Shown here piece after piece: positions 24,218 through 58,710 of a DNA stretch of 64,000 nt (its first letter is position 1; each line of letters opens with the position of its first letter). The notes under the pieces are model-generated. The model searched no databases, was not told where the DNA came from, and saw nothing but the letters and a program-made list of their open reading frames with translations. Position numbers and translations under genes: made by a program. This DNA comes from a virus. Taxonomy: Duplodnaviria; Caudoviricetes. The DNA lies in the IMG/VR virus record IMGVR_UViG_3300031420_000495, positions 160,001-224,000 of that record; one strand, written 5' to 3'.

Positions 24218-25720
24218 TTAGCAGTCGATTTCTACCGCGTAACCCCACAGGTAGTCGATATGATCGGTGACCAGATCAGCATCGGCCAGGTCCAGCGTAC
24301 GGCCCTTGTATGGAATGTACTCGAGTTTCAACGTACGATCGCCTTCGAGGTCGGCGGATTTCACGACGATCTGCGGCACATAGTTGATACGTTCCATGCT
24401 GCGAGCCAGCGCATTGCGAATGTTGCGATAGCCGACTTCATCGTGGATTTCGCTCACGATCGCAGTGATGTGGCCGTCGTCATCGTCGCCTTCGTCAGGT
24501 TGACCTTGATCGTACGAGATGGTGAACAACCGCAGATCACGGATGACCTTCGGCGAAAGCCACTGCGCGATGAAGCTGTCGTCGCGGTATTCGAACGCGG
24601 CTTCTTTTACAGCATCTTGCCACTTGCGGCCCATCAGATGCGGGAACCATTCACGATCTTCGTCGGTCGGATTCTCGCACATGCGCTTGACGTCCATCAG
24701 GATCGCGAATCCGAGTGCGTACGGATTCGGTCCGCTGTACCAGCGATCACGATACACCGGCTGGTAGATCACCGCACTGTGGCTTTCCAGGAAGAACAGG
24801 AAAGCGTCCGGCGAGATGAAACCCTTTTCTTCCAGGCGGGTCATGATGTAGTAGTGGCAGAACGATGCGAAGCCTTCGTTCAGGTTCTTCGTCTGGCCCT
24901 GCGGGTAGAAGTACTGGTTGACCTTGTAGACGATGCGGATGATTTCGCGTTTCCACTGCGGCAAGTTCGGCGAATACTTCATGATGAAGTACAGCAGGTT
25001 TTCTTCTTCCTCGACCGAGTCCTCGGCATCATGCTCGCTCAGGTCGACCTCGCGGAACGACGTCTTCTTGAGGATGATGTCCAGCTCTTTTTGCTTCTGG
25101 TCTTCGTCGGCCAGCAACTTGATGAGGCGTGCTTCTTCGCCCATGCGCGGTTGGTGCTTGCGCTTGAACTTGTCGACACCGTGTGGTGCCAGCGCGTGCG
25201 CAGCATCGAGAACCATCTCGACTTCTTCCTCGCCGTAACGTTCTTCGCACTGGCGAATGTAGTCGCGTGCGAAGATCATGTAGTCGATGATCGAGCCGGC
25301 GTTGGTCCACTGCTTGAAGCATTCGTTGTTCTTGAACACTGCATTGTGACCGATTGCCGCGTGTGCCATCACCATGGTTTGCATGACCATGTTGTTGTCT
25401 TCCATCAGGTAGCTGATACACGGATTCGTGTTGATCACGATTTCGTATGCCAGACCCTGACGGCCGGACTGATACGCTCGGTGGGACTTCAAGAAGTCTT
25501 TACCGAACGACCAGTGATTGTAGTGGATCGGCAGACCCACGGACGAGTATGCGTCGAGCATTTGCTCAGCCGAAATGATTTCGATCGAGTTCGGATAGAT
25601 GTCGACACCCGGCTTCAGGTGCAACTCCTCCTCGGCGATGATTTCGATTTCTTTCCAAATCCTCTCGATGAGGTTTTGGTTCCAGTCCGTATGGCTGGTG
25701 ATGTACAATGGCTCGCTCAT
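24218..25720 (-). CDS. spoVR: SpoVR/YcgB family protein
   Basis: GLPIHYNHWSFGK, AYEIVINTNP, TKNLNEGFASFCH, NPYALG. Confidence 0.95.
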   Translation of the reverse strand: MSEPLYITSHTDWNQNLIERIWKEIEIIAEEELHLKPGVDIYPNSIEIISAEQMLDAYSSVGLPIHYNHWSFGKDFLKSHRAYQSGRQGLAYEIVINTNPCISYLMEDNNMVMQTMVMAHAAIGHNAVFKNNECFKQWTNAGSIIDYMIFARDYIRQCEERYGEEEVEMVLDAAHALAPHGVDKFKRKHQPRMGEEARLIKLLADEDQKQKELDIILKKTSFREVDLSEHDAEDSVEEEENLLYFIMKYSPNLPQWKREIIRIVYKVNQYFYPQGQTKNLNEGFASFCHYYIMTRLEEKGFISPDAFLFFLESHSAVIYQPVYRDRWYSGPNPYALGFAILMDVKRMCENPTDEDREWFPHLMGRKWQDAVKEAAFEYRDDSFIAQWLSPKVIRDLRLFTISYDQGQPDEGDDDDGHITAIVSEIHDEVGYRNIRNALARSMERINYVPQIVVKSADLEGDRTLKLEYIPYKGRTLDLADADLVTDHIDYLWGYAVEIDC

Positions 25721-27099
25721 TTCACTTTGCTCCCGCGTTTGCGATAAATCGTTTTGAATGCGTCGAACACTGCATGCTCGTCGGCGATCTTAATCATCGC
25801 CAGCTTCTTGTTGTTCGATGCGATGCTTTGCATCACAGACCACAACGTTTGGCTGCTGCCGAATCCGGCGCCGAATGATTGACCGACTTGCACGTAAACT
25901 GCGTGACGGAGCTTGGACAGCAAACCCGACTCGACGATTTCTTTGACGATGGCAGGATTGTCAGTGTCCCAGTTGTCGCCGTCGCCAGCATACGACACAT
26001 AGATGTTCGTCTGACTTGCGTCATAACGTTCTTTGATGATCGTGTGCAGCAGTGCCCAGGCTGGAGATACAATTGTACCACCAGACTTGCGCGTTGTGAA
26101 GAATTCTTCTTCAGTCAGCTCTTCGGCTTCGTCGGTGTGCGCGATGAAGATCAGGTCAGTTTGCGGGTACTTCTTGACGATGAACGCGTATTGCAGGGTG
26201 AAGAACTTGCGGGCCATACGTTTCTTTTCTTCGTCCATCGAACCCGAGATGTCCATCAGCATGCACAGCACCGCGTCGGATGCTTTGACTTGAACCTTCT
26301 CGGTTTTGCGGTAACGCAGGTCGACTTCTTCGTACAGGCCGATGCCGTCGATCTTTTTCTTCAGTTCAGCGATACGAGTCGAAACAGTTTGCACGCGCTT
26401 CGCCCACAGATCAGTGCTGCCCATCGCGCTTGCATCGAAGTCGTCGGCCATCAGGTATTTCAGCTCGTCTTCGAGTTCCATCAGTTCATCGCGCGAATCT
26501 TTCGTCAGCGCGAGGCGACGTGCCAGCGAATGCTTGAACGACTTGACAACGGCGAGCTGGCCTGGGTTACCAACCTTCTGGAAACCGGCACGCTTCATGA
26601 CGTGCTCAGGCAAATCCTTCTCGTGCGTTTCTTTCAGATCCGGCAGTTCGCAGTCTTCGAAGAAGACGTCGTAGAATTCCGAACGGCTGATGTTGATGAT
26701 GAAATCATCTTCACCGCTTTCGCCGGGTCCATTGCCGCGTCCGCCCTTACCGCTGCCCGAGCCAGTCGACATTGGGAACTCGTCGCCCTTCAACCAAACG
26801 TCGTTACCGATGAGCACGATTTCGTGTTCACCGGAATTGTGATCGTAGTGGAATGTGGGTTCGTTCAGAGCTTGACGCGCGACTTTGACGGGATTGGTTT
26901 GCGAGTTGGCGCCATGGCTCGATCCAGCTTTGTGGACGCCACCAGCATCGATGTCTTCCGGCTTCGCGTTGCGAATCGAATCGCGAATACGCTTCAGCAG
27001 TTTCTGTCGATTGTTTGACGATTTGCCGCGACCAGTTTTGCGGCGGTCCACGAAAATGAAGTTCGTGGTAACTGGTGCTTTTTGGCTTTCATCACTCAT
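25717..27099 (-). CDS. yeaH: YeaH/YhbH (DUF444, vWA) protein
   Basis: KSSNNRQKLL, LMDISGSMDE, SGGTIVS, YAGDGDNW. Confidence 0.95.
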   Translation of the reverse strand: MSDESQKAPVTTNFIFVDRRKTGRGKSSNNRQKLLKRIRDSIRNAKPEDIDAGGVHKAGSSHGANSQTNPVKVARQALNEPTFHYDHNSGEHEIVLIGNDVWLKGDEFPMSTGSGSGKGGRGNGPGESGEDDFIINISRSEFYDVFFEDCELPDLKETHEKDLPEHVMKRAGFQKVGNPGQLAVVKSFKHSLARRLALTKDSRDELMELEDELKYLMADDFDASAMGSTDLWAKRVQTVSTRIAELKKKIDGIGLYEEVDLRYRKTEKVQVKASDAVLCMLMDISGSMDEEKKRMARKFFTLQYAFIVKKYPQTDLIFIAHTDEAEELTEEEFFTTRKSGGTIVSPAWALLHTIIKERYDASQTNIYVSYAGDGDNWDTDNPAIVKEIVESGLLSKLRHAVYVQVGQSFGAGFGSSQTLWSVMQSIASNNKKLAMIKIADEHAVFDAFKTIYRKRGSKVK

Positions 27100-27316
27100 T
27101 GCATTTCTCCTTTTTCCGGAACAGCCGTTCAGCTGCAACAGAAGCTGTTGTAGGGAAATTGAATGGCGAATCATCAGACCATTCAATTTCCCGACTTTCA
27201 TGATCTACGACCGTAACAGACTGAGAAAGGCTGAATTTGATTTCATCAACCAAATCAGCCTCACTCAAACCGTCATGGTCCACCACGATCATAGTGATGC
27301 GGTGGACCCTGGCCAT
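27092..27316 (-). CDS. hypothetical protein inside prkA operon
   Basis: ORF filling the gap with overlaps. Confidence 0.55.
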   Translation of the reverse strand: MARVHRITMIVVDHDGLSEADLVDEIKFSLSQSVTVVDHESREIEWSDDSPFNFPTTASVAAERLFRKKEKCNE

Positions 27317-29280
27317 TACGCGCTCTTACGGTTGGCGGTGAACCAGCTCACCAGGATTTGCACCTGATGTTCGGTGTAGCCCTTGTCGATCATGCGCTGC
27401 ACGAAACCTTGATGTTTCTCTTCGGTTTCCTTGTCTTGCTTCGGACCGAACGCGATGACCGGCAGAATCTGTTCCGTAGCCGAGAACATGCGTTTCTCGA
27501 TCACGGTCTTGATCTTTTCGTACTGGTCCCAGCGCGGGCTGTTGCCTTCGTTCTTCGCTTTGTAGCGCAGCACGTAGTGCACGATTTCGTTACGGAAGTC
27601 CTTCGCGTTGGTGATCGCGGCGGCCTTCTCGATTTCTTCCAGCTTGCTGTTGAGCGCTTCGCGGTTCATCAGCGTGTGGGTTTCCGGATCGCGGCACTGC
27701 TCGTCGTTGATCCATGCTTCAGCGAACAGCACGTAGCGTTCGAACATGTTCTGGCCGAAGGAGCTGTACGACTCGAGGTAAGCCGTGCGCAGTTCTTTTT
27801 CCAGGAACTCGAAGTATTTCGGTTGCAGGAAGGACTTGATGAAGTCCATGTATTTCTGCTCGCGTTCTTCCGGCAGACCTTCCTTGCGCACCGATTCCTC
27901 GATGACGTACATCAGGTCGATCGGGTTGGCCTGGAATTCTTCCGGACGCAGGTCGAAGACCGACGACAGAATCTTGAAGGCGAAGCGAGTCGACATACCG
28001 GTCATGCCTTCGTCGATACCAGCGTTGTCGCGGTATTCTTCGTACGGCTTCGCATTCGGCATGCGGTCCTTCACGTTCTCGCCGTTGTACACGGCCAGCT
28101 TCGCGTACAGCGTGCTGTTTTCCGGTTCCTTCAGGCGGGTCAGGATCATGAATTGCGAGAGCATCTTCAGGGTGCCCGGTGCGATTGGTGCATCGCGCAG
28201 GTTCGAGCCCTTCAGCATCTTCTCGTAAATCTTGATTTCTTCGTCGACACGCAGGCAGTACGGCACATCAACGATGAACACGCGGTCCAGGAATGCTTCG
28301 TTGGTCTTGTTGTTGCGGAACGCGAACCATTCGCTTTCGTTCGAGTGCGCCACGATCACGCCCATGTACGGCATTGCCGGAATTGCTTCCGTACCGTTGT
28401 AGTTGTGTTCTTGCGTCGCCATCAGCAGCGGGTTCAGGGTCTTGATGTTCGCCTTGAACATTTCGGCGAAGTCCATCATACCTTGGTTGGTACGGTTCAG
28501 GCCGCCGCTGTACGAGTACGCGTACGGGTGATTCTGCGGATACTGTTCCAGCTTGCGCAGGTCAGTCTTGCCGATCAGCACCGAGACGTCTTGGTTGTTC
28601 TCGTCGCCCGGTTCGACTTTCATGACGCCGATCTGGCGATCTTTGTTCGGATACAGCTTGACCACGCTGAAGCGCGTGATGTCGCCTTCGAATTCCTGCA
28701 GCTTCTGCAGTGCCCAACCCGACAGCACGGTCTGGTTCAGGTAGTTGGCAGGGATGCCTGCGTCGGCGATGACTTCGGCGTGGGTCTCGTCGTTCTTGTC
28801 GAACAGAGCCAGCGGCGATTCGAAGACCGGCGAGGTTGCCAATTCCGGATTCTTCTCGTTCGCATCATGCAGAACGTAGATCGGGAACTTTTCCATCAGT
28901 GCCTTCAGGCGTTCGACGATGGACGACTTACCGCCACCGACCGGGCCTTTCAGGTACAGGATTTGTTTGCTTTCTTCCAGGCCGGCCGAAGCGTGGCGGA
29001 AGTAAGCGGCCAGACGCTCGATTGCGTCTTCGGCGCCGTAGAAGTCCTTGAAGGCTTCGTACACGCGGATTTTCTTGTTGCTGTGGATACGCGACAGACG
29101 GGAGTCTTCGCTCGTATCGACGACCTTTGGTTGGCCGATTGCAGCAACCATGCGTTCCGCTGCGGTCGCGTAGGCCATCTTGTCTTTCTTGCACAGATCG
29201 AGATACTGATCCAGCGTCATGACTTCTGGTTTGGCGAACTTCGCTGCGTAAGACGAAGAGAGTGCGGAAAGATTGCTCAT
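27316..29280 (-). CDS. prkA: PrkA/YeaG AAA+ serine kinase
   Basis: KQILYLKGPVGGGKSS, NQDVSVLIGK, GMTGMSTRF; TAAATA upstream. Confidence 0.95.
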   Translation of the reverse strand: MSNLSALSSSYAAKFAKPEVMTLDQYLDLCKKDKMAYATAAERMVAAIGQPKVVDTSEDSRLSRIHSNKKIRVYEAFKDFYGAEDAIERLAAYFRHASAGLEESKQILYLKGPVGGGKSSIVERLKALMEKFPIYVLHDANEKNPELATSPVFESPLALFDKNDETHAEVIADAGIPANYLNQTVLSGWALQKLQEFEGDITRFSVVKLYPNKDRQIGVMKVEPGDENNQDVSVLIGKTDLRKLEQYPQNHPYAYSYSGGLNRTNQGMMDFAEMFKANIKTLNPLLMATQEHNYNGTEAIPAMPYMGVIVAHSNESEWFAFRNNKTNEAFLDRVFIVDVPYCLRVDEEIKIYEKMLKGSNLRDAPIAPGTLKMLSQFMILTRLKEPENSTLYAKLAVYNGENVKDRMPNAKPYEEYRDNAGIDEGMTGMSTRFAFKILSSVFDLRPEEFQANPIDLMYVIEESVRKEGLPEEREQKYMDFIKSFLQPKYFEFLEKELRTAYLESYSSFGQNMFERYVLFAEAWINDEQCRDPETHTLMNREALNSKLEEIEKAAAITNAKDFRNEIVHYVLRYKAKNEGNSPRWDQYEKIKTVIEKRMFSATEQILPVIAFGPKQDKETEEKHQGFVQRMIDKGYTEHQVQILVSWFTANRKSA

Positions 29281-32770: not shown

Positions 32771-33376
32771 TCATTCAATTACGTGTACATTAAACCACCG
32801 CTCATTGTGAAGCATGCGATCGTATTTTCCACGATGCTTGCAGAAGTACGATGCAAAGTCTCGACCCTGCGATTCGAATTCTTCTTCTACCAGTTTGACC
32901 TGATCGACGCGGCCGCGGAATTGGATATTCACTTCGACGTCGTATTGGCTGTATGTCCCATCGTAGTATTTGATGTTTGGCGTTTCGAATACATCGCAGA
33001 TTTCCAATGACAAGAACTTGGAATTCATGTATGGCGTGGCATTGTAAAGTTTGTCAACAATGTGCTTGCCAATATATTCGAGATGCCTAGCATCGTCTTC
33101 GTTGTTGTAAAACTCCAACGTTCCTTCTTGGCCTTCTGGCCAAGCATGAAAACCGAACGTCACATCGATGACTCCGTAACCCATCATTTCGAGAATGATT
33201 TCTTGGATGTCATCGTCTTCGCCGATTTCCTCGATGTACTTCGTTCCGTTCTTGAGATGCACTTCGAGTTGATCGTGTGCAATCTCGCGAACGAGTTGTA
33301 TTGGGTCAGTAGGCTTTGACGAGCTGACAACCAGCAAGCCGCGCGACTTGCGAATGACAATTGGATCGTCGATCAT
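32771..33376 (-). CDS. hypothetical protein
   Basis: ORF. Confidence 0.65.
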   Translation of the reverse strand: MIDDPIVIRKSRGLLVVSSSKPTDPIQLVREIAHDQLEVHLKNGTKYIEEIGEDDDIQEIILEMMGYGVIDVTFGFHAWPEGQEGTLEFYNNEDDARHLEYIGKHIVDKLYNATPYMNSKFLSLEICDVFETPNIKYYDGTYSQYDVEVNIQFRGRVDQVKLVEEEFESQGRDFASYFCKHRGKYDRMLHNERWFNVHVIE

Positions 33377-33435: not shown

Positions 33436-35058
33436 TTAGAAGTTCGCGATGATCTGCGGTGCGGCCGAGTCGAAACCGGCGATGTCCAGCATACCGCCGT
33501 CTTTCGGATCAGCGATCGTGAACTGCGTGACCGACGTACCGATCACAACCGACTTCGCATTCTTGTTCACGTTCGCGCGGTACTTTGCGAGAGCCTGAAC
33601 AGGCGACTGACGACCCGAGTTGGTTTCGTTGTCGGTGATGATGACGAACTTGTCGACTTTGTACTTGTGCGCCGCAGCGTACTCGTAGGTCTTCGCGCAG
33701 TCGGTGCTGCCGCCGTTCCAGTTCGCTTTTTCCATCACGTTCAGCACTGCGTCGAGACGCATGCTTGGCGAGATTTTCAGTTCCACGAGGTCTTGCTTGA
33801 AACCAACCACGTGGCTGTTCGGCTGATTGCGAATCACGCCCATTGCCATACATGCCGCAACTTCCGCTGCGTTCAGGTTTGGCGAGCCGTTCACGTTCGA
33901 ACCCCACATCGAGCCGGAGATGTCGACACCTACGAGGTAGTTGTCGTCAGTCTTTTCGGCTGCGGCGAATGCAGCGTAGAACGCGTCATCCAGTGCGGTA
34001 ATGATGCGCTGATCCGGAGTCCAGACCAACGAACCACGCTCACCATGGCCGGCCTTGTACTGCTTCATTGCCTGCAGGATCGTGATTGGGTGCACGCGAC
34101 CACGACGAATTGCTTCGACGTCGGTCAGCTTTGCGACAGCCAGCTTCGAGCCTTCGGACAGCGGGCCGAATACACCGTGTGCGGACAGCGAACCCAGTTT
34201 ACGGATCAGGGCTGTCATACCCATGTTGCGGACCAGAGCCAGCAACACGTCTTTGTCTTTCAGGAACTGGGTCGGCACCATTTCCCAGGTCAGCAGGTCG
34301 GAACCTTCGATCAGACGCAGAACGTCTTTCTTGTCGGTTGCGCGCTTCAGGTACTCGAAGTCAACGAGGACTTGCGGTACTTCTGCGCCTTCTGGCAGCT
34401 CACCTTTTACGGAGTAGCGGAACAGGTTGGACTGCTGGTCGGACGATGGCTTCACGTGCGCGAGACGCAGAACGTCGCGGTGTGCCCAGCCGTTACGCTG
34501 TTGGTACTTCAGCATCTGCACTGCCAGCTTGTCGATCGTCTTGCCGGTGTACCATGCGGCAACACCACGCTTTGCTGCAGCGTTCCACTTGCCCAGCGCG
34601 TCCAACATCGACACGAACAGGAACAGGTGGGTACCGGTACGGCAGACCTTTGGCAGGGCTTCGTACGCAGCAGCGACGGTTTCGGCATTGCCGAAGACAG
34701 CAGCCAGCGCGAGCGCCACGACTGCTGGATCGTTCTTCGGAGCGCGGCCGGCGAGCGAGTATTCGACGATGCGGTTGACCACGCGCAGACCGTCTTCTTT
34801 GATGCAACGCTTGATCACATCGAAGGACATCTTCGTGGTTTCTTTCGCGCCGACGTAGTAGCCAGCGGATTCCGAACCGATCATGAGGAATCGGTCAAAC
34901 ACGCCGAAATGATCGAGCGTGAACGTGAAGGCACCGCTGTTGTTCCGCTTCATCTCTGCTTCACGGCCTGGGACCGGAGCTTGCAGTGGTGGAGTGGAAG
35001 TCTTCGCCATGTTGGTCGAAGATGCGTTTGCGAGGTCGGTGTAGATGGATGACGACAT
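33436..35058 (-). CDS. rsr: Ro60/Rsr TROVE-domain RNA-binding protein
   Basis: NNSGAFTF, RFLMIGSE.GYYV, KYQQRNGWAHRDVLRLAH, vWA DISGSM, GGSTDC, ITDNET. Confidence 0.93.
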   Translation of the reverse strand: MSSSIYTDLANASSTNMAKTSTPPLQAPVPGREAEMKRNNSGAFTFTLDHFGVFDRFLMIGSESAGYYVGAKETTKMSFDVIKRCIKEDGLRVVNRIVEYSLAGRAPKNDPAVVALALAAVFGNAETVAAAYEALPKVCRTGTHLFLFVSMLDALGKWNAAAKRGVAAWYTGKTIDKLAVQMLKYQQRNGWAHRDVLRLAHVKPSSDQQSNLFRYSVKGELPEGAEVPQVLVDFEYLKRATDKKDVLRLIEGSDLLTWEMVPTQFLKDKDVLLALVRNMGMTALIRKLGSLSAHGVFGPLSEGSKLAVAKLTDVEAIRRGRVHPITILQAMKQYKAGHGERGSLVWTPDQRIITALDDAFYAAFAAAEKTDDNYLVGVDISGSMWGSNVNGSPNLNAAEVAACMAMGVIRNQPNSHVVGFKQDLVELKISPSMRLDAVLNVMEKANWNGGSTDCAKTYEYAAAHKYKVDKFVIITDNETNSGRQSPVQALAKYRANVNKNAKSVVIGTSVTQFTIADPKDGGMLDIAGFDSAAPQIIANF

Positions 35059-35115
35059 GTGTATTTCCTTCACGATAATTTATACGGCTGCACGCGCAGC
35101 AAAGAGCAACAACTC

Positions 35116-35401
35116 ACTGAGAAACAAAATTGCAATCGAGAATTTCAGCGTGTCAAAGTTTGATCTGCCTCCAATTACGGTCAGCAGCAGTGAACGCCTA
35201 CTCCGCATGAATAGCATGCAGTAACTATCAGAGTTTCTATCTCTGCAATATCAAGTTTCAGGCACTTGCAAATTGCCGTATACCGCATACGGCGACGTCT
35301 GTTACTTCTGGCTTGTCTTTCTAACTCGCGTTAAAAGAACAGAGAGCTTTTAGTTTTCAGTTTACGATTAAAGGATAATCGATACGCGGCGGTTTCTCAG
35401 T
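35116..35401 (-). ncRNA. long (286 nt) Y-RNA-like RNA candidate
   Basis: Ends pair (ACUGAGAAAC/GUUUCUCAGU), bulged C, upper stem AUCGA/UCGAU followed by UUAUCC; next to rsr. Confidence 0.55.
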
Positions 35402-35423
35402 TTGTTGAAGTTATGACCTAGTG

Positions 35424-35508
35424 AAAAGAGCGACAAAGATACAGGAACGGATTTCAATTGGGCGTCCGAAGACAATAATGGAGATAACCGTAAACCTTTC
35501 GGTCGCTT
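35424..35508 (-). ncRNA. Y RNA candidate
   Basis: AGCGAC-C-GAAAGGUUUACGG-UUAUCUC...CCGU...CUUUGUCGCU-CUUUU; next to rsr. Confidence 0.75.
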
Positions 35509-35772
35509 AGTTCATTGTGGGCTTTATGATATTGCCCACTCGATTCGCTACAGTTTCTGCTGCAGCATCAATCTATATATGCATTATACAACGTGTTTTT
35601 GAACTTTTGGAACTTTATTTTTGTTCAACCGGTTTGACTGGTTCGAACAGATGGCCATCGCCATCAGGTGCAGAACATGGACCGGTGCGCGAGACACTAT
35701 CACACCAAATACATTTCCACACCAGCTTTGCGCGTTCGTCATCAGTCAGTGCAGACATTCAACGACGATCGC

Positions 35773-36351
35773 TCATTTCGCAGTTTCCTTTGCGTACAAG
35801 ATATTCTCGACACAAGCGAAGATCATACCAGGAATTTCGGGGATTTGTGCGATTCCGTTGACAATATTTGCGGGACCGTAGTACGTCATCTCGTCCGGCG
35901 TGTCGTGCTTAGGCTGCTGCACGATGATGAACTGGTAGATGTCTTTGTCACGGTACGAACCGATGACGGGTCCGGTGTCGACGACTTTCACGACTTCGAT
36001 GCCAGCTGCTTTCAAAGTCTCCATTATTTCTTCGGTCGGAATTTCTTCGCCGGCAGCTTGACGTTCGGCAATTTTCGCAACAGCTTCCAGCCGAGCGCGA
36101 TCGTATTCTTCCGCTTTGTTGATGCGATCTGCTTCAGCAATCTCTTCCGGCGGAATCGTGGACGCCAGAATGTTGACGGTGACGAACAGGCATATCGCGT
36201 AGCTGATGAACCCGAATGGAATCAGCAGCAACCATGCGAGCGGAACCAGATACGTACCTGCCCACCATCCAGCTGCGAACATGATTACCCACCATGCAAT
36301 CTTGCAGCGACGAAGAGCCTTCTTCAGACGCTTGTCCATTTTCTCAGTCAT
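35773..36351 (-). CDS. membrane hypothetical protein
   Basis: N-terminal TM segments. Confidence 0.65.
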   Translation of the reverse strand: MTEKMDKRLKKALRRCKIAWWVIMFAAGWWAGTYLVPLAWLLLIPFGFISYAICLFVTVNILASTIPPEEIAEADRINKAEEYDRARLEAVAKIAERQAAGEEIPTEEIMETLKAAGIEVVKVVDTGPVIGSYRDKDIYQFIIVQQPKHDTPDEMTYYGPANIVNGIAQIPEIPGMIFACVENILYAKETAK

Positions 36352-36384
36352 GTTCTTCTCCCAAATAGAATTCATTGTACCATG

Positions 36385-36443: not shown

Positions 36444-37380
36444 ATGCTAACTTCTCGATGAGCATGTCTGCGTACAGTTCAACATAGCCACCGTTAGTCG
36501 GAGCGTGAAGTGTCGTCGTATATGGATATGTCGGCGAGCCAGCCACGGTATATTTGAAATCGATTCCAACAACTGCCCCTCCAGCTGGAACCGTAAATTC
36601 TCCGCGTGCATGATACGTCGGTGCACCTGTAGCTGGCGACCCATTCGATTTAGCCGAAACACTGTAGGCAAGTGCTTTTCCACTCGTGGAGTCAAATACC
36701 CGCATACCGGTAGAAGCGGGTACCAATGCACCGCTTGCGACGCTAACACGATAAGTTCCTTGAGGAAGTGTGACTGCGTTGTTGGTTAATGCAGCACCCT
36801 CAATTGTGTTTCCAACCACGGTCTGAAGTTCTTGCCTTACGTCTACTGGTCCCGTAGGTGCTGAAGCCAACGTAAAGCTTTGACCTGAAACTCCAACAGC
36901 ACGCAAGTCTTGTACATGGATGTACGGCAACGCGGCCGATGCACTCGAACCGCTACCGGTCGAAACCCCGCTGATGGCGAAGTCATCCAGGAACAGAACA
37001 CGGGCGAAGCCGCGTTGGAAACTGTTGAACTGGATCGTGATGGTGTTCTCGTCGTTGACCGTGATTGCATCTGGGAAAATGACGCTGTTGTTTTCGTCGA
37101 ACGCCTGGACGATGACATCTTCAGAACCCAGGTTGTGATTCAGTACCCAGGTCGTCGATGCTTCGGTCACTTCCAATACCGCTTTGCGATTACCAGTCAG
37201 TGTGATACCGGTCAGCTGCCCGTTGGACAACGCCAACACTTGACCTTCGCCAAGTGTGATCGCATCGAACTGACGTGGACCTGCACCGCGACGGATGATG
37301 ATCGTTTCTTGTGCTGGGTCTTTATCCAGGTAGCCACGTTTTGGTAATTCTACCTGGACGAAATCTTCAAATGCGCTCAT
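36442..37380 (-). CDS. putative virion structural protein
   Basis: Beta-rich, WVLNHNLG..VQAFD motif; follows the TAAATA-driven gene. Confidence 0.55.
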   Translation of the reverse strand: MSAFEDFVQVELPKRGYLDKDPAQETIIIRRGAGPRQFDAITLGEGQVLALSNGQLTGITLTGNRKAVLEVTEASTTWVLNHNLGSEDVIVQAFDENNSVIFPDAITVNDENTITIQFNSFQRGFARVLFLDDFAISGVSTGSGSSASAALPYIHVQDLRAVGVSGQSFTLASAPTGPVDVRQELQTVVGNTIEGAALTNNAVTLPQGTYRVSVASGALVPASTGMRVFDSTSGKALAYSVSAKSNGSPATGAPTYHARGEFTVPAGGAVVGIDFKYTVAGSPTYPYTTTLHAPTNGGYVELYADMLIEKLA

Positions 37381-39035
37381 TATGCGACCTCCTCAATTTC
37401 AACTTGCAAGGTGCCGGTCGTATTCGATCCTGCAAACTCTTTGTCAGTCAGGAACAGATATGCTCCGTTCGGGTTGTATGTGCCGTCAGCATCTGTGATC
37501 GTGAAACCAGCAAAGAACTGACTTGTGTCAGTGCGACTTGTCAGTGTGGACGAACCTGCGTACTTCGCGGTAACTTTCGTGAAGTCGCTGATCGGAGTTC
37601 CGATCGCTGCAACTTGAGAGAACGGTGCGAAGGTGAGGGTGCGACGCGCGAAACCACCAACAACGTATGCCGAGCCGGACGTAATGACATTGCCGGTAAC
37701 GTTTGCCAAGTTCTGGAGAACCAGCGTGTTGAATGTTTGTGGACCATCAACATCGGCGTCAGTGATACGCAGCACGCGGCTGTAAACACCTGCTGCGTTT
37801 GTCCATGCTCCTTGCCATGTTCCGCTCGATGCTACCAGTGTTGGTGGTGCATTCAGAATCTGGTTTGGTGTGATGCGAACAGTGTAGTCTGTTCCGCCTG
37901 GTGTCGAAGTCAAACGAGTTGGCGAACCGACGATTGTGATCGTTGCTGTTGGAGCGGTATCTGCGATCGCGACAGAAGCGGTTGCAACGGTTGATGCAGC
38001 GTTCGATGCCTTGGTTGCAGTGATTGTGTAGTTGGCAACTCCATTTACATAGCCGCCACCGATACGTGTGACCGTCTTCGTAGTTGCCATTGTGTTCGGA
38101 GCTGTAACAGCCAAGTCACCGGAAGTCGTGTAGACTGCAGTGTCTGCGTTTGTAATCGTTGCCGATACAGTTGCCGATTCTGTGCCTTTCAGCGCGGACT
38201 GAGTTGCTGGATACGTAATTGTGCGCGCACCAATTGTTGGGAACGTCTGATTCAGTACGATCGTGTTTGTCGATACTGTGTTTGCGCCGAATGTGCCGAG
38301 TGCATTGCGAGCACGAACTGTAACACTTTGCGCTCCGGAGTTTGTCGCGTGGACAGTGAACGTGCCGGTGAAAGTTTTGAATCCGTTGCCAGCCGAATCC
38401 GGTCCACCGAGTGCGAGCGACGTAACACTCTTCGATGCACCGCCAGCCACGACTTCAACGTATGTTGCAGCATTGGCAACTGTACCAGAAATGGTAACCA
38501 GATCGTTGTTCTTCGCTTCTGTCTGTGTTCCAGGCAAAGCACCGATAGTTGCAGTAGTGACAGCAGGTCCAACTTCAGCGACATAGATCAATGCTTGTGC
38601 AACTGCGCCAGTGCTTGATTTAGCGGTGACAACAGTGTTGACAGCAATGCCAGTCAGATCAACGGTTCCGCTGAAAAGACGTTTGTCGTATTGGTCTTCG
38701 GTAAGCGTGACGACGCGATCACCACCAGCTTGTGGAGGTACGGTCGTGACGGTAACGGTCGGGGAGTAGAAAGCGGAACCGCCTTCTGCCATGATGGTGA
38801 CGCGAACTGATTGCGTGTCGGAAGTTGCTGCGGTTACAACTCGATTGGCTGGAACAGTGTTTGGCTCATATTGCTTGTTGCCAACAATACCACCTGATGT
38901 TGGAGTAATGTCCGTGATGAACACGCCTCCCGTTGCTGCTTGGCTTGCCACAATCTGCTGATCCACATAATGCTTCGTTGCAATCTCTTGCGGAAGTAAT
39001 GGATCAGTTGTGACAGAGCTTTGATAAATCTTCAT
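37380..39035 (-). CDS. putative virion structural protein (Ig-like, T/A/G-rich)
   Basis: IATKHYVD fibre motif; TAAATA upstream. Confidence 0.65.
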   Translation of the reverse strand: MKIYQSSVTTDPLLPQEIATKHYVDQQIVASQAATGGVFITDITPTSGGIVGNKQYEPNTVPANRVVTAATSDTQSVRVTIMAEGGSAFYSPTVTVTTVPPQAGGDRVVTLTEDQYDKRLFSGTVDLTGIAVNTVVTAKSSTGAVAQALIYVAEVGPAVTTATIGALPGTQTEAKNNDLVTISGTVANAATYVEVVAGGASKSVTSLALGGPDSAGNGFKTFTGTFTVHATNSGAQSVTVRARNALGTFGANTVSTNTIVLNQTFPTIGARTITYPATQSALKGTESATVSATITNADTAVYTTSGDLAVTAPNTMATTKTVTRIGGGYVNGVANYTITATKASNAASTVATASVAIADTAPTATITIVGSPTRLTSTPGGTDYTVRITPNQILNAPPTLVASSGTWQGAWTNAAGVYSRVLRITDADVDGPQTFNTLVLQNLANVTGNVITSGSAYVVGGFARRTLTFAPFSQVAAIGTPISDFTKVTAKYAGSSTLTSRTDTSQFFAGFTITDADGTYNPNGAYLFLTDKEFAGSNTTGTLQVEIEEVA

Positions 39036-55162: not shown

Positions 55163-55237
55163 TGGGGTGACTAGAGGGAATCGAACCCTCGTGAGGGGAT
55201 TCACAGTCCCCGACTTTACCACTAAGCTATAGCCACC
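55163..55237 (-). tRNA. tRNA-His(GUG) with encoded G-1
   Basis: GGGGA-CUGUGAA-UCCCC; C73; G at -1 (55237). Confidence 0.92.
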
Positions 55238-55245
55238 ATTGAAAC

Positions 55246-55437
55246 TTATTCGAAGCACATCACCGAAACCGTGCCTTCGTTCGGGCCGATGCCGACGAGA
55301 GTTGCTTCGCCATCTTCCGTCAGAACAGCAACCATGTGCGGCCCGTTCATCATGGCTTCTTCGGCATTGTAGATGACGATTTCATCGCCTTCCGTAATCA
55401 TGCCTTCGTAAGCCTGTTTGATAAATTCAAAATTCAT
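55246..55437 (-). CDS. hypothetical protein
   Basis: ORF. Confidence 0.55.
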   Translation of the reverse strand: MNFEFIKQAYEGMITEGDEIVIYNAEEAMMNGPHMVAVLTEDGEATLVGIGPNEGTVSVMCFE

Positions 55438-55446
55438 TATACCACC

Positions 55447-55740
55447 TTATTTCTTCGCGATCAGACGTTTGGCGTTGTTCAGGAAACCTTGTTCACCGCT
55501 CAGGTCGGTTTCGATGCGACCGTTGAACTGGATCACTGCAACCGGATTTTTCACACCAGCGCGGACGATGCCACCGAACCAGTCACGACCACCAAGGCCG
55601 TTTTCGTCGATGCAATCGCGAACCAGCTTCGATGCTTCTTCCAGCGAAGCGACGTCAACCCATTGCGCATTGCGCGGAGTCATCGTCATTTCGCCTTCGA
55701 AGAAAGCGATCAGGACTTGCAGGTTGGTAGCGTTCGACAT
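55447..55740 (-). CDS. hypothetical protein
   Basis: ORF after promoter. Confidence 0.65.
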   Translation of the reverse strand: MSNATNLQVLIAFFEGEMTMTPRNAQWVDVASLEEASKLVRDCIDENGLGGRDWFGGIVRAGVKNPVAVIQFNGRIETDLSGEQGFLNNAKRLIAKK

Positions 55741-55771
55741 TTTGTTTCTCCGTGTGTTTGGTCAGTGAAGT

Positions 55772-55810
55772 CATTATACCCAACACACAGAGAAATGCAC
55801 AGACTTATTT
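55772..55810 (-). promoter_or_regulatory. promoter AAATAA..CTGTGCA-N17-TATAATG
   Basis: Motif read directly. Confidence 0.7.
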
Positions 55811-56053
55811 TCCGTCTGCGCGACCGCCTTCACGGGCGAAGCGACCTTGCGGTGCTTGCTCCAGCGATGCAGCCGGATTCACCGGCTTGTAGTTGCCGGT
55901 TGCACGACGAGCAGCGCGGGCAGTACCACGCGGGGTTTTGGTTTTGGCGGTAGCGGTCATAATCATTTCCTTTTCAGGCTAAAGTTAGAACAAGCAAAGT
56001 GTCGTTCAGTGAGGCTATTATAGCAAACAGCCTCAGCTGTGTAACCCATTATT

Positions 56054-56935
56054 TCAGTGATTGCGCTCTTGGCCTTTGCGGCGGATCACCCACATATCGT
56101 CTGCGAGACGGTACGGAGAAGTGAACCAGTCTTGAGTCATTTTGAAGTAACCGTTGTTACCCCATTGTTTACCCCAAGAGTTACGAATCCAGACGTACGG
56201 TTCTGCCACGCGATCTTCGTAACCAACAGCAACAACTGCGTGACCACCGTTCATGCGGTCACGTGGGCCTGGCATGCGAAGGAAACCATTGAAACGCGGG
56301 CTGAGGAAAATCTCAGGGCAAGAGAAACCAAACGTGACTGGATAGCCAAGTGCCAGTGCTGCTTTCAGTTCGTTCAGATTGTTAACGCGCATGTACTCGA
56401 AACCCCACATACGATCGACCAGTGCTTTACCTTCAGCGAAGGCTTGAGCGGATGGTTTGACCGAGAAGCGGCTTTCGATGTACGGCCAGGTTTCTTCGTA
56501 CGCTGCTCCATAGGCCGCGAGACCCTTGATGACACTACGAATTGTCGCACCAGTATCTTGTGTCAAGTCTCTGTTGCCGTCCATTACACGCGCGTTGTAA
56601 TACGCGAACAGACGAGAGAACGGACGACGGGTGCCGATCGAAATTTCGAGTGCAGAAGTAGAAGAGTTACCCGTGCAGGAACCAATCTGACCTTGATTTT
56701 CGATTTTGTTGCGAAGACCAACGATGTTAACGAACTTCGGCAGAGCAGCAGTGTTGACTGCTCCGTTGAGCGCGCTGAACATGACGTCGCGATGGTCCGG
56801 CATATCCGGACGCCATTGATATTTGAGAATCCGATCCATGCCTTCTGGCACGACCATCGGCGTTTGTGGGGACGGATTGTCTGTTGGTGGGAGTTGCGAG
56901 TCGATCGCTTCTTCCAAGGTGTTGTTGTCACTCAT
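56054..56935 (-). CDS. papain-like (C1A) cysteine peptidase
   Basis: NQGQIGSCTG, GGHAVVAVGY, IRNSWG..WGNNGYF. Confidence 0.93.
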   Translation of the reverse strand: MSDNNTLEEAIDSQLPPTDNPSPQTPMVVPEGMDRILKYQWRPDMPDHRDVMFSALNGAVNTAALPKFVNIVGLRNKIENQGQIGSCTGNSSTSALEISIGTRRPFSRLFAYYNARVMDGNRDLTQDTGATIRSVIKGLAAYGAAYEETWPYIESRFSVKPSAQAFAEGKALVDRMWGFEYMRVNNLNELKAALALGYPVTFGFSCPEIFLSPRFNGFLRMPGPRDRMNGGHAVVAVGYEDRVAEPYVWIRNSWGKQWGNNGYFKMTQDWFTSPYRLADDMWVIRRKGQERNH

Positions 56936-56974
56936 GATATTCTCCTAAAGAGTTGTTGGTGTTACAACATCTAT

Positions 56975-57214
56975 TTAGGCAGAGCGTGCTACTTTGATGC
57001 TCCCAGACTTGGCCATGATGATACGTATGTCACCAACTTTCATGCCGGCGAAGTATTGTTTGATTTGAATTGGCGTGAGGTAATACATGCCGTTAGCTTT
57101 TGAGAACACATCGAAACCCAGCGTTTCGCCTTTTGTTCCACCATTGCTTCCGTCACGTAAAACTTCGAACTGCCAGTCACGCATGCTTTCGTCAGCAATT
57201 TCGGTGAGTAGCAT
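56975..57214 (-). CDS. hypothetical, MLLTEIADE N-terminus
   Basis: TAAATA upstream. Confidence 0.65.
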   Translation of the reverse strand: MLLTEIADESMRDWQFEVLRDGSNGGTKGETLGFDVFSKANGMYYLTPIQIKQYFAGMKVGDIRIIMAKSGSIKVARSA

Positions 57215-57254
57215 AATTTTCCCAGAATGTTTTTCTTATTTACAGGGAAGTGTT

Positions 57255-57327
57255 TGGCAAGGGTGGAGAGAATCGAACTCTCCGCAGCGCGGTTCAAAGC
57301 CGCGTGCAATCACCAGATCGCACCCCA
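57255..57327 (-). tRNA. tRNA-Gln(UUG), short D-arm
   Basis: CGCGG-CUUUGAA-CCGCG, CCA. Confidence 0.8.
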
Positions 57328-57333
57328 ACTGAT

Positions 57334-57403
57334 TGGCAAGTCAACACGGAATCGAACCGTGCCTAACGGGTTTGGAGCCCGTCGTCATCCCAGATGCTGA
57401 CCC
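57334..57403 (-). tRNA. tRNA-Trp(CCA), 70 nt, truncated D-arm
   Basis: ACGGG-CUCCAAA-CCCGU, CCA. Confidence 0.75.
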
Positions 57404-57408
57404 ATTGT

Positions 57409-57585
57409 TTATTCGTCGACGAGTTCGAACTCGCCTGCTTCTACCTTGTCCAGCATCAGGTTGATCTGTCGCGCGATGTCCTCAGCGCTGACATTCGGAT
57501 TGCTGCCCAACGTAAAGCCGATATTCTTTACTTCCAGCGAACCAGGTCCGAAAAGACGCTTGGTGGCTTTTTCCATTTCAGTCAT
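57409..57585 (-). CDS. hypothetical protein in tRNA array
   Basis: ORF. Confidence 0.55.
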   Translation of the reverse strand: MTEMEKATKRLFGPGSLEVKNIGFTLGSNPNVSAEDIARQINLMLDKVEAGEFELVDE

Positions 57586-57608
57586 ACAAAGTCCTTTCAA
57601 AGTTATAC

Positions 57609-57682
57609 TGGTGGAGAGGGATGTTTTCGAGACACCGACGCACCTGTCCCCCAGGCCGCTCTACCAACTGAGCTACCTCTCC
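57609..57682 (-). pseudogene. tRNA-like gene with aberrant G-rich anticodon loop
   Basis: Canonical D-arm and CCA but loop GGGG(G)A and T-loop CUCGAAA. Confidence 0.65.
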
Positions 57683-57687
57683 ATGTT

Positions 57688-57761
57688 TGGTGCCCAAGTG
57701 CGGAATCGGACCGCATTCTCTTCCGTACCAAGGAAGTGTACTGCCATTGTACTACGAGGGC
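57688..57761 (-). tRNA. tRNA-Thr(GGU)
   Basis: CUUCC-UUGGUAC-GGAAG. Confidence 0.85.
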
Positions 57762-57767
57762 GATGTT

Positions 57768-57895
57768 TGGTGCCGACGGCTGGATTCGAACCAAGCCCTA
57801 GTCTTTTCGTAGAAGATAACCGTTCACTGACGGTCACATTGCTGCGACAAAACTTGTAAACGACGTTTCTGTGCTGTCCACTACACTACGTCGGC
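57768..57895 (-). ncRNA. 128-nt tRNA-like RNA with large insertion in the anticodon arm
   Basis: GCCGACG/CGUCGGC acceptor, D-arm, UUCGAAU, CCA; ~55 extra nt. Confidence 0.7.
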
Positions 57896-57901
57896 ATTGT
57901 T

Positions 57902-57976
57902 TGGTCGTGACGGGCGGAATCGAACCGCCTTGATACACCTTATGAGGGTGGCGCATTGCCTTAATGCTACGTCACG
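57902..57976 (-). tRNA. tRNA-Met/Ile2(CAU)
   Basis: CUCAUAA loop. Confidence 0.85.
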
Positions 57977-57988
57977 GTAAAAGTACTT

Positions 57989-58062
57989 TGGGGTGACCGA
58001 CGGGAATCGAACCCGCGCTATCTCCGTCACAAGGAGAGTTGCTACCATTACAACACGGTCAC
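57989..58062 (-). tRNA. tRNA-His(GUG) without encoded G-1
   Basis: UCUCC-UUGUGAC-GGAGA; C73; U at -1. Confidence 0.88.
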
Positions 58063-58074
58063 ACTAAAATACTC

Positions 58075-58227
58075 TCAGTCTTTCTTCTGTTCAATCTTCT
58101 CGATTGCTTCAACGAGTTGATCGTAATACTTTGTCATCTTGGCATGTTGCACTGAATCAGAAAATTTTCCATAATTGCAGCACTCCATTTGAAATCGGTC
58201 CAGCAAGCGTTTGATGTTTTGGTCCAT
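58075..58227 (-). CDS. small hypothetical protein
   Basis: MDQNIKRLLDRF... Confidence 0.5.
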   Translation of the reverse strand: MDQNIKRLLDRFQMECCNYGKFSDSVQHAKMTKYYDQLVEAIEKIEQKKD

Positions 58228-58242
58228 GATGATCTTTGTAAA

Positions 58243-58329
58243 TGGTGGGCGCACAGAGAATCGAACTCTGTCTGGACTTTCGTCTCGGCGGGTTAAAAGC
58301 CCGCTTCCTACCCATTTGGAACTACGCCC
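58243..58329 (-). tRNA. tRNA-Lys(UUU), long variable arm
   Basis: GCGGG-CUUUUAA-CCCGC; 87 nt. Confidence 0.8.
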
Positions 58330-58336
58330 GTTAGGT

Positions 58337-58412
58337 TGGTGGGTGCGGTGGGAGTCGAACCCACAACCTAACGGGTAAAAGCCGTTTGCTCTGCCAGTTG
58401 AGCTACACACCC
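58337..58412 (-). tRNA. tRNA-Lys(UUU)
   Basis: Canonical cloverleaf. Confidence 0.92.
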
Positions 58413-58468
58413 ATAAGTTTGTCACATTTGTCACTAGACATGACAGTCACTCCTTATGGTTAATAATC

Positions 58469-58543
58469 TGGACCCACCTACAGGAATCGAACCTGTGTCT
58501 TCGCGTTCGTAGCGCAATGCAATATCCACTATACTAAGGTGAG
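58469..58543 (-). tRNA. tRNA-Arg(ACG)
   Basis: CUACGAA loop. Confidence 0.88.
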
Positions 58544-58549
58544 TATGTT

Positions 58550-58625
58550 TGGTGCCGCCTACTGGTTACGATCCAGTCCCTCTTGCTTTTCAGGCAAGCG
58601 CTTCCACCAGGTTAGCTTAAGCGGC
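58550..58625 (-). tRNA. tRNA-Phe(GAA)
   Basis: CUUGC-CUGAAAA-GCAAG. Confidence 0.88.
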
Positions 58626-58631
58626 AATGTT

Positions 58632-58705
58632 TGGCGACTCGTAGGGGAATCGGACCCCTTTCTTACCCTGGACAGGGGTAGGTAATACCAATATACGAAC
58701 GAGCC
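58632..58705 (-). tRNA. tRNA-Asp(GUC)
   Basis: UACCC-CUGUCCA-GGGUA. Confidence 0.88.
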
Positions 58706-58710
58706 ATCGG

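Follow-up and report, generated by a model that had tools for sequence, protein, structure and literature searches.

A probable giant Y RNA upstream of rsr in a clade of uncultivated jumbo phages

The window analyzed here, a 64,000-nucleotide (nt) stretch comprising bases 160001 to 224000 of a 257-kb IMG/VR virus record, carries on its minus strand a 286-nt element directly upstream of rsr, the gene for a Ro60 orthologue. This giant element is probably a phage-encoded noncoding RNA of the Y RNA class that is bound by Rsr at a conserved handle and bears a new, large effector module. Its structure, its synteny and strand relative to rsr, and the identity of its handle were conserved among homologous loci, and the tRNA-like module of YrlA was absent. 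The observation of a conserved Y-like element is solid, and the functional reading, which draws on analogy with other Y RNAs, is plausible but unproven. The minus strand is the strand of rsr and the reading strand of the element, and the motifs reported in a first-pass annotation of the sequence (e.g., UUAUCC) were read on it. The features of the element and its immediate surroundings were as follows.

33436-35058, minus strand: rsr, Ro60 orthologue of 540 amino acids (aa), with Pfam TROVE and Ro60 vWA domains
35087-35100, minus strand: hairpin GCUGC-GCGU-GCAGC, downstream of the giant RNA and ahead of the rsr ribosome-binding site, lacking a trailing U-tract
35429-35507, minus strand: small Y RNA of 79 nt, AGCGAC-CGAAAGG...ACGG-UUAUC...CCGU...UUUG-UCGCU, immediately upstream of the giant element
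35110-35407, minus strand: whole giant Y-like RNA including the outer stem extension, 298 nt (inverted repeat I9)
35116-35401, minus strand: core element as delimited in the first-pass annotation, 286 nt
35392-35401, minus strand: P1 5' strand, ACUGAGAAAC, whose final C opens the conserved CCG
35116-35125, minus strand: P1 3' strand, GUUUCUCAGU, preceded by the U-run AAUUUU (35126-35131)
Between P1 and P2, minus strand: internal loop, 5' C-CGCC facing 3' AAUUUU-G
35374-35391, minus strand: presumed Ro-site region (CGCC loop, P2 5' strand GCG(U)AUCGA, and UUAUC)
35379-35387 and 35132-35139, minus strand: P2, including AUCGA (35379-35383) paired with UCGAU (35135-35139)
35374-35378, minus strand: UUAUC (UUAUCC at 35373-35378)
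35345-35373, minus strand: unassigned 29-nt stretch
35296-35344, minus strand: long arm P3/P4, with P3 strands at 35335-35344 and 35296-35309 (UCUGUU/AACAGA)
35321-35334, minus strand: P4, GNRA hairpin UUAAC-GCGA-GUUAG inside P3
35310-35320, minus strand: conserved internal loop AAAGACAAGCC within the P3/P4 arm
35275-35293, minus strand: P5, GCCGUAU-GCGGU-AUACGGC, a hairpin at the same position in homologues
35197-35278, minus strand: conserved core, P6 to P8 plus GUAG (match to model R2)
35252-35268, minus strand: P6, followed by linker AUAUUG
35229-35245, minus strand: P7, CAGAG/CUCUG, followed by linker AUAGUUA
35203-35221, minus strand: P8, followed by GUAG (35198-35201)
35147-35198, minus strand: variable arm P9, GGCGU...ACGCU, with a branched tip and closing strands at 35194-35198 and 35147-35151
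35132-35146, minus strand: GAAAUUC (35140-35146), then the P2 3' strand UCGAUUGC; family consensus YGAARUYUCCGA

The 10-base-pair (bp) terminal stem, the CCG-type internal loop facing a U-run, the upper stem AUCGA/UCGAU, and UUAUCC described in the first-pass annotation were all present on the minus strand where that annotation had placed them. Beyond the 10 bp of P1, a 2x2 internal loop is followed by CAAC/GUUG (35404-35407 and 35110-35113), which extends the stem to 14 bp and the element to 35110-35407; this outer extension was also found in loci L052, L007, and others. A fold constrained to the listed helices reached -75.8 kcal/mol, against an unconstrained optimum of -77.1 kcal/mol.

Searches with the Rsr protein and with a six-sequence alignment yielded 75 viral or metagenomic loci, plus 80 loci from genomes. 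Within the clade whose Rsr is approximately 55 to 82% identical to that of the window, a simple descriptor search (P1; a 5' strand led by CCG; P2 ending in GG; UUAUC; and, on the 3' side, YGAARUYUCCGA, a U-run, and the P1 partner) located the same architecture directly upstream of rsr in 30 nonidentical loci. When one P1 mismatch was allowed, the full handle was found in all 43 loci that bear the conserved interior core, a few of these parses being doubtful. Elements in the 43 loci were 238 to 393 nt long (median, 300 nt), and no open reading frame (ORF) within the element was conserved across homologues.

The closing stem covaried massively among these loci, as the first-pass annotation had proposed to check. 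In the 30 hand-parsed homologues, P1 was in every case an unbroken stem, 6 to 23 bp long (median, 11 bp), with lengths of up to 24 bp among the 43 loci, and its inner hexamer took 24 different sequences, with all four Watson-Crick pair types occurring at each position. Under a fixed-register test, 5' and 3' arms drawn from unrelated loci paired over a mean of only 1.3 bp, and 1.5% of such combinations reached 6 bp; this test was used as the control in place of a prior permutation test that was confounded by register choice and related sequences. Close relatives differed by clean compensatory changes, such as the G:C to C:G change between ACUGAGAAAC/GUUUCUCAGU of the window and ACUGACAAAC/GUUUGUCAGU of L007. 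The outer pair of P2 also varied (AU, 6; GC, 5; UA, 1; alignment A2). The spacing from CCG to UUAUC was 10 to 12 nt in 30/30 loci, and UUAYC or UUAAC was present in all parsed loci.

The position of the element bears on whether it acts in cis. In most of the 43 loci, only 24 to 70 nt (57 nt in the window) lie between its 3' end and the start codon of rsr, both being on one strand, and no terminator intervenes; the hairpin at 35087-35100, which was retained with covarying stems when the upstream regions of six loci were aligned, may act as a signal for processing or stability. These features would suit a leader of the rsr mRNA, that is, a Y RNA mimic in the 5' untranslated region (UTR) through which Rsr autoregulates its own translation or mRNA stability, with no free trans-acting RNA. 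This explanation appears unlikely. In L015, L017, L018, and L078, the element and rsr are parted by 200 to 770 nt with small ORFs, which argues against a pure leader role; the approximately 240-nt interior, with its conserved loops and linkers, goes far beyond the needs of a binding-site mimic; and the Y RNAs known from Deinococcus, M. smegmatis, and phage phiLo are free RNAs even though their genes immediately precede rsr (PMC4201824, PMC12135203). The possibility raised in the first-pass annotation, an rsr 5' UTR with no conserved terminal stem, is contradicted by the conserved stem, and the intervening ORFs indicate that the element is not simply a leader. One RNA could nevertheless fill both the leader and the free-RNA role. 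Insertions between the giant RNA and rsr in some relatives (L017:1236-1500 and L018:797-1265) comprise small ORFs of 71 and 82 aa.

An unusually large interior on a Y RNA-type closing handle had been described in the first-pass annotation, and the approximately 240 nt enclosed by the handle were indeed conserved and structured on the rsr strand. They form six or seven arms, mostly capped by loops of the YC-GNRA-A type and joined by short conserved linkers (AUAUUG, AUAGGUU). Two of the three internal helices named in that annotation, GCCGUAU/AUACGGC (P5) and CAGAG/CUCUG (P7), were conserved; the third, AGUAAC/GUUACU, was not, being broken in the close relative L048, and AACAGA is instead the 3' strand of the conserved P3 helix UCUGUU/AACAGA.

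A covariance model of the three interior hairpins P6 to P8 and the following GUAGG (model R2) had 45 matches among 100 sources, every one of them within this Rsr clade, on the strand of rsr, and 120 to 250 nt upstream of that gene. It had no match in 40 cellular rsr loci or in distant viral loci with canonical YrlA, and the single match in the window (60.0 bits, E = 7e-11) was also the sole match in the 257-kb record. Pairing of P6 to P8 was possible in 77% of cells, compared to 54% in shuffled alignments (0/500 as high), and fell to 32 to 43% when the partner was slid by 1 to 3 columns; the covariation score of the R2 alignment was 0.525, compared to 0.202 in shuffles. The UAG after P8 was invariant in 43/43 distinct sequences. 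Across the family, the loops of P4, P6, P7, and P8 were of one type, YC-GNRA-A (e.g., CGAAA, UCGUAA, GCAA), and the linkers leading into P6, P7, and P8 were short and alike (G-U-U, A-n-g-U-U-g, and n-u-a-G-n-u, respectively).

The remaining arms were conserved to different degrees. Model R3, which covers the P3/P4 arm, matched 27 loci, again in this clade only, and P4 was 79% paired. The register of P3 varies, and the covariance model alignment misregistered it (52% paired); a free stem search for P3 was not significant by length (6.7 bp observed, compared to a shuffled mean of 5.5 bp). Because these formal counts are weak, P3 is identified by compensatory changes between close relatives and its constant position. 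P5 is supported by the presence of a hairpin at its position in homologues. The helix closing P9 was present in every homologue with differing sequences (GGUAG/CUGCU, GAUCG/CGGUC, GGUUGC/GCAGCU, and others), and P9 ranged in length from approximately 20 to approximately 90 nt. RNAalifold applied to plain MAFFT alignments recovered only P2 and P8, since stem and loop lengths vary, and a simple hairpin-chain parser found all three core hairpins in 16/26 sequences, compared to 16% of shuffles, and was too rigid for the rest. Pairing of CUAC, which follows UUAUC, with the invariant GUAG was possible in approximately half of the loci, and GUAG was also invariant where CUAC was absent.

Two other candidate features of the interior were discarded. 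A pseudoknot between the AGGUU linker and AAGCC was inconsistent across loci, and the likeness of P8 plus GAGUAGG in the window to helix IV/loop E of 5S rRNA was judged coincidental, as P8 covaries elsewhere and the 5S model had no match. Separately, the elements of L013, L023, and L025 consist largely of three or four tandem units of a hairpin plus AUAUUUG, a pattern that suggests growth of the interior by duplication of a hairpin-linker unit. A 221-nt minimal form (L013:1243-1463) was missed by the core model.

Many GNRA-type loops, a conserved internal loop rich in purines, and invariant nucleotides at junctions are features typically seen in RNAs that adopt tertiary folds, and the long terminal stems of some loci (up to 24 bp) and the lack of an Rfam family match could likewise point to an autonomous large structured RNA, such as a ribozyme, assembly scaffold, or host-factor decoy, with a terminal stem that serves only folding or RNase III processing and a function independent of Rsr. 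Such an RNA is improbable here: in the sources searched, the core was found only beside rsr of one clade and always on the rsr strand, and the internal loop and UUAUC are shared exactly with the small Y RNA of the same locus and with bacterial Y RNAs, a match that processing alone would leave unexplained.

The handle and the neighboring RNAs bear on assignment to the Y RNA class. The Ro-binding sequence in the 5' stem strand of Y RNAs is GGUCCGA in animals and GNCGAAN0-1G in bacteria. In the giant family, the handle reads CCG-N-N-G, which deviates from the published motif in the two bases that follow CCG. The handle of the giant element matches those of the adjacent small Y RNA and of cellular YrlA and YrlB; the likeness to the short RNA had been proposed in the first-pass annotation, and the small RNA at 35429-35507 has the same layout. 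A small Y RNA of 56 to 158 nt precedes the giant element in 30 loci. Against RF01656 (nematode sbRNA, a Y RNA homologue; gathering score, 38), the small RNAs of L029 and L039 scored 37.0 and 30.4 bits, respectively; the RF01656 consensus GGUCCGGaGucgaUGGGUUAUC aligns with the phage sequence ACCGGAGACGAUUGGUUAUC, and the CCG-to-UUAUC spacing of the giant elements equals that of RF01656.

In cellular rsr loci, whose Rsr is approximately 40% identical, arrays of Y RNAs were found in forms of 65 to 75 nt and 120 to 140 nt with the handle GGGYCGNAG...GGGUUAUC. The longer forms are classic YrlA RNAs: they bear a T arm (GGUUCGA), a closed acceptor-like stem (AS), and a D arm (UAGCUCA). As a separate observation, tandem arrays of four to six Y RNAs lie upstream of rsr in Verrucomicrobiota, Chloroflexota, and Myxococcota (L094, L095, L099, L101, L120, and others); such arrays (e.g., L095:1048-1873) mix forms of approximately 70 nt with tRNA-like YrlA forms of approximately 130 nt, some having a T arm without a D arm.

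The interior of the giant element is not tRNA-like. ARAGORN found no tRNA or tmRNA from 33 to 37 kb, and Rfam searches at gathering and permissive thresholds, covering the window and 20 plus 15 sister loci, returned nothing for the giant element; at E values of up to 10, the sole Rfam match for this region was RAGATH-27, at a chance-level 18.8 bits against a threshold of 76. In distant viral loci, a YrlA covariance model (R1) recovered genuine YrlA with E values of 3e-14 to 1.5e-8; it cross-matched tRNAs and matched no giant element. Since the clade lacks canonical YrlA and distant viral rsr loci have it, the giant element occupies the YrlA slot. It is very improbable that the giant is itself a diverged YrlA and still a tRNA mimic, with a large variable-region insertion and with P7-P8-UAG-P9 corresponding, in degenerate form, to the T arm, acceptor-like stem, U8-A9, and D stem: the order of parts is similar (UUAUC, extra hairpins, a 5-bp stem with a 7-nt loop such as GUCGAAA, a 7- to 9-bp closed stem, UAG, a stem, and the 3' handle, compared to UUAUC, V, T arm, AS, and UAGCUCA D arm in YrlA), yet besides the null results of R1 and ARAGORN, P7 loops lack UUCGA (AUAGAAA in the window), a conserved 6- to 7-nt linker separates P7 from P8, the T and acceptor stems being directly adjacent in tRNA and YrlA, and P9 lacks the conserved D-loop GG and varies widely in length.

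Several observations weigh against classifying the giant element as an Rsr-bound Y RNA. The handle of the window, ACCGCCG, has two or three mismatches to the YrlA motif, and no Y RNA-type model in Rfam matched the giant element itself. Folding energy of the whole molecule was unexceptional (z = -1.66 on either strand), so the single sequence is unconvincing by itself and the signal is comparative. A consensus scan found no recognizable promoter or terminator bracketing the element, and a discrete RNA would thus depend on processing that is itself only inferred. No cultured phage carried an Rsr of this clade (all at or below approximately 41% identity by tblastn), which may explain why the giant RNA has escaped notice, and a blastn search of the locus against cultured phages gave no match. 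Finally, the identity of any effector partner is a guess by analogy. The closest match in genome collections was L082 (NZ_JAZQPV010000081.1, binned as an Acinetobacter sp. metagenome-assembled genome [MAG]), with 73% Rsr identity and a 324-nt giant RNA whose P1 sequence is identical to that of the window; this contig is probably phage DNA binned into the MAG, and the hint to a host is weak.

Bacterial Y RNAs are encoded on the same strand as rsr and within 4 kb of it (PMC4201824), and known Y RNAs range from 80 to approximately 220 nt (bioRxiv 10.1101/312249). Like YrlA and YrlB (Chen et al. 2014, PMC4201824; bioRxiv 10.1101/312249), the giant element is adjacent to rsr and on its strand, has a long end-to-end stem, a 5'-strand motif resembling their G-N-C-G-... 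type, a second stem, and YUAY (here UUAUC), and shares its locus with a small YrlB-like RNA. Unlike them, it measures 286 to 298 nt, outside the known range, six or seven arms with GNRA-type loops stand in place of the tRNA-like T/AS/D module, and the AA of GNCGAA is not conserved. With metazoan Y RNAs and nematode sbRNAs (RF00019, RF01656), it shares a lower stem, a CCG bulged region, an upper stem, and UUAUC, with CCG and UUAUC 11 nt apart; it differs in going undetected by their models and in having a multi-arm folded interior in place of their pyrimidine-rich loop.

Phage-encoded Y-like RNAs have been described before. Thermus phage phiLo encodes two upstream of its Ro60, which forms complexes with host PNPase in vitro (PMC12135203). 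As in phiLo (Ro60-Yrl1/2) and in Deinococcus (Yrn1/RYPER), the giant RNA lies upstream of rsr; in the model for those systems the RNA tethers Ro60 to PNPase, which would extend to the giant RNA by analogy only (PMC12135203). The effector part of the giant RNA has no sequence similarity to theirs, and phiLo Ro60 is only distantly related to the Rsr of the window (E = 1e-5). GOLLD and ROOL are likewise large, ornate, phage-encoded noncoding RNAs of tRNA gene-rich genomes; the giant RNA is smaller, has a Y RNA handle, is adjacent to rsr, and had no Rfam match to them at E values of up to 10.

In the proposed mechanism, the giant RNA would be cotranscribed with the small Y RNA and rsr from the minus strand and released or stabilized by its long terminal stem. 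Phage Rsr would then bind the conserved handle (terminal stem, CCG 5' strand facing the U-run, second stem, and UUAUC). In Y RNAs, the other end tethers Ro60 to a partner or gates the Ro60 cavity (PMC4201824; bioRxiv 10.1101/312249). By this analogy, the folded domain of approximately 240 nt, with its conserved internal loop GAAAGACAAGCC, would stand in for the small loop or tRNA-like module and serve as an effector that tethers or gates the Rsr ring relative to another factor. The likeliest partner would be a 3'-5' exoribonuclease of the host (e.g., PNPase) or one of the RNA-repair enzymes encoded by the phage itself, with damaged or misfolded RNA in the infected cell as the substrate. Three hairpin-plus-linker units with single-stranded A/U-rich joints would suit a multimeric single-strand binder, such as the KH/S1 domains of trimeric PNPase; alternatively, the giant RNA might organize the RNA-repair set of the phage (Thg1-like, Rnl1, Rnl2, and CCA-type nucleotidyltransferase). 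In another setting, a Ro60-like protein of coliphage Bas63 has been reported to counter the ppl defense system (bioRxiv 10.1101/2024.10.10.617714).

A bolder form of this reading is speculative and rather doubtful. The GNRA-capped arms, purine-rich internal loop, three similar A/U-rich linkers, and invariant UAG junction could mark an RNA fold that is both new and autonomous and through which the Ro60 ring gains a function not observed for small Y RNAs, either as a platform docking a trimeric exoribonuclease via the three hairpin-linker units or as an assembly of Thg1-like, Rnl1, Rnl2, and CCA-adding enzymes around Rsr in a phage-specific RNA repair or anti-defense particle.

The ORF at 33436-35058 is, judged by its sequence, a full-length Ro60 orthologue, and in the Protein Data Bank (PDB) it matched Xenopus Ro60 (E = 2e-97) about as closely as it matched Deinococcus Rsr (E = 1.5e-96). 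The minus-strand order is a 200-aa ORF, TATAAT, the small Y RNA, the 286-nt element, the hairpin, rsr, a 201-aa ORF, a Thg1-like gene, and an HD phosphohydrolase gene. The neighboring features not listed above were as follows.

35773-36375, minus strand: 200-aa ORF, with no Pfam, PHROG, or Atlas assignment
35583-35588, minus strand: TATAAT, promoter-like by inference only, not called by the consensus scan
32771-33376, minus strand: 201-aa ORF downstream of rsr, with no assignment, recurring in 2 loci

In 13 sister loci, the 200-aa ORF likewise directly precedes the two Y RNAs, to which it could be functionally linked; Atlas searches with both unannotated neighbor proteins returned nothing usable. 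The Thg1-like and HD phosphohydrolase genes downstream of rsr form an RNA-repair context, and elsewhere in the 257-kb record (G000 coordinates) an Rnl2-type ligase (229243-229704), an Rnl1-type ligase (128285-128887), and a CCA/poly(A) nucleotidyltransferase (243534-243896) were encoded; RtcB was not found in the 257-kb genome. The record also contained phage structural genes, including one for a tail sheath (window positions 37380-39035), and at least 17 tRNA genes in an array (window positions 55166-60815); all lay on the minus strand. Also on the minus strand, a triad of PrkA kinase, DUF444 (YeaH-like), and SpoVR genes was located at 24218-29280, with a bactofilin-like gene, a DHFR gene, and an HD phosphohydrolase gene upstream of it.

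A Y RNA consists of a Ro60-binding stem and a small module that selects a partner. To our knowledge, only two module types have been characterized in bacteria: in Yrn1, loops that bind PNPase, and in YrlA, a tRNA mimic. No Y RNA of the size or architecture of the giant element was described in the literature searched, and on the best reading, a large multi-hairpin effector on a Y RNA handle extends the known size and form of the class. It would be a third conserved module, larger than any described Y RNA and confined to a clade of uncultivated jumbo phages (contigs of up to 376 kb), in which it replaces YrlA. If this is true, Y RNAs show far greater plasticity at their effector end than supposed. 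The giant RNA would offer a defined RNA with which to ask what phage Ro60 does, and the particle that it forms with protein could be amenable to cryo-electron microscopy, given the size and rigid multi-arm architecture of the RNA.
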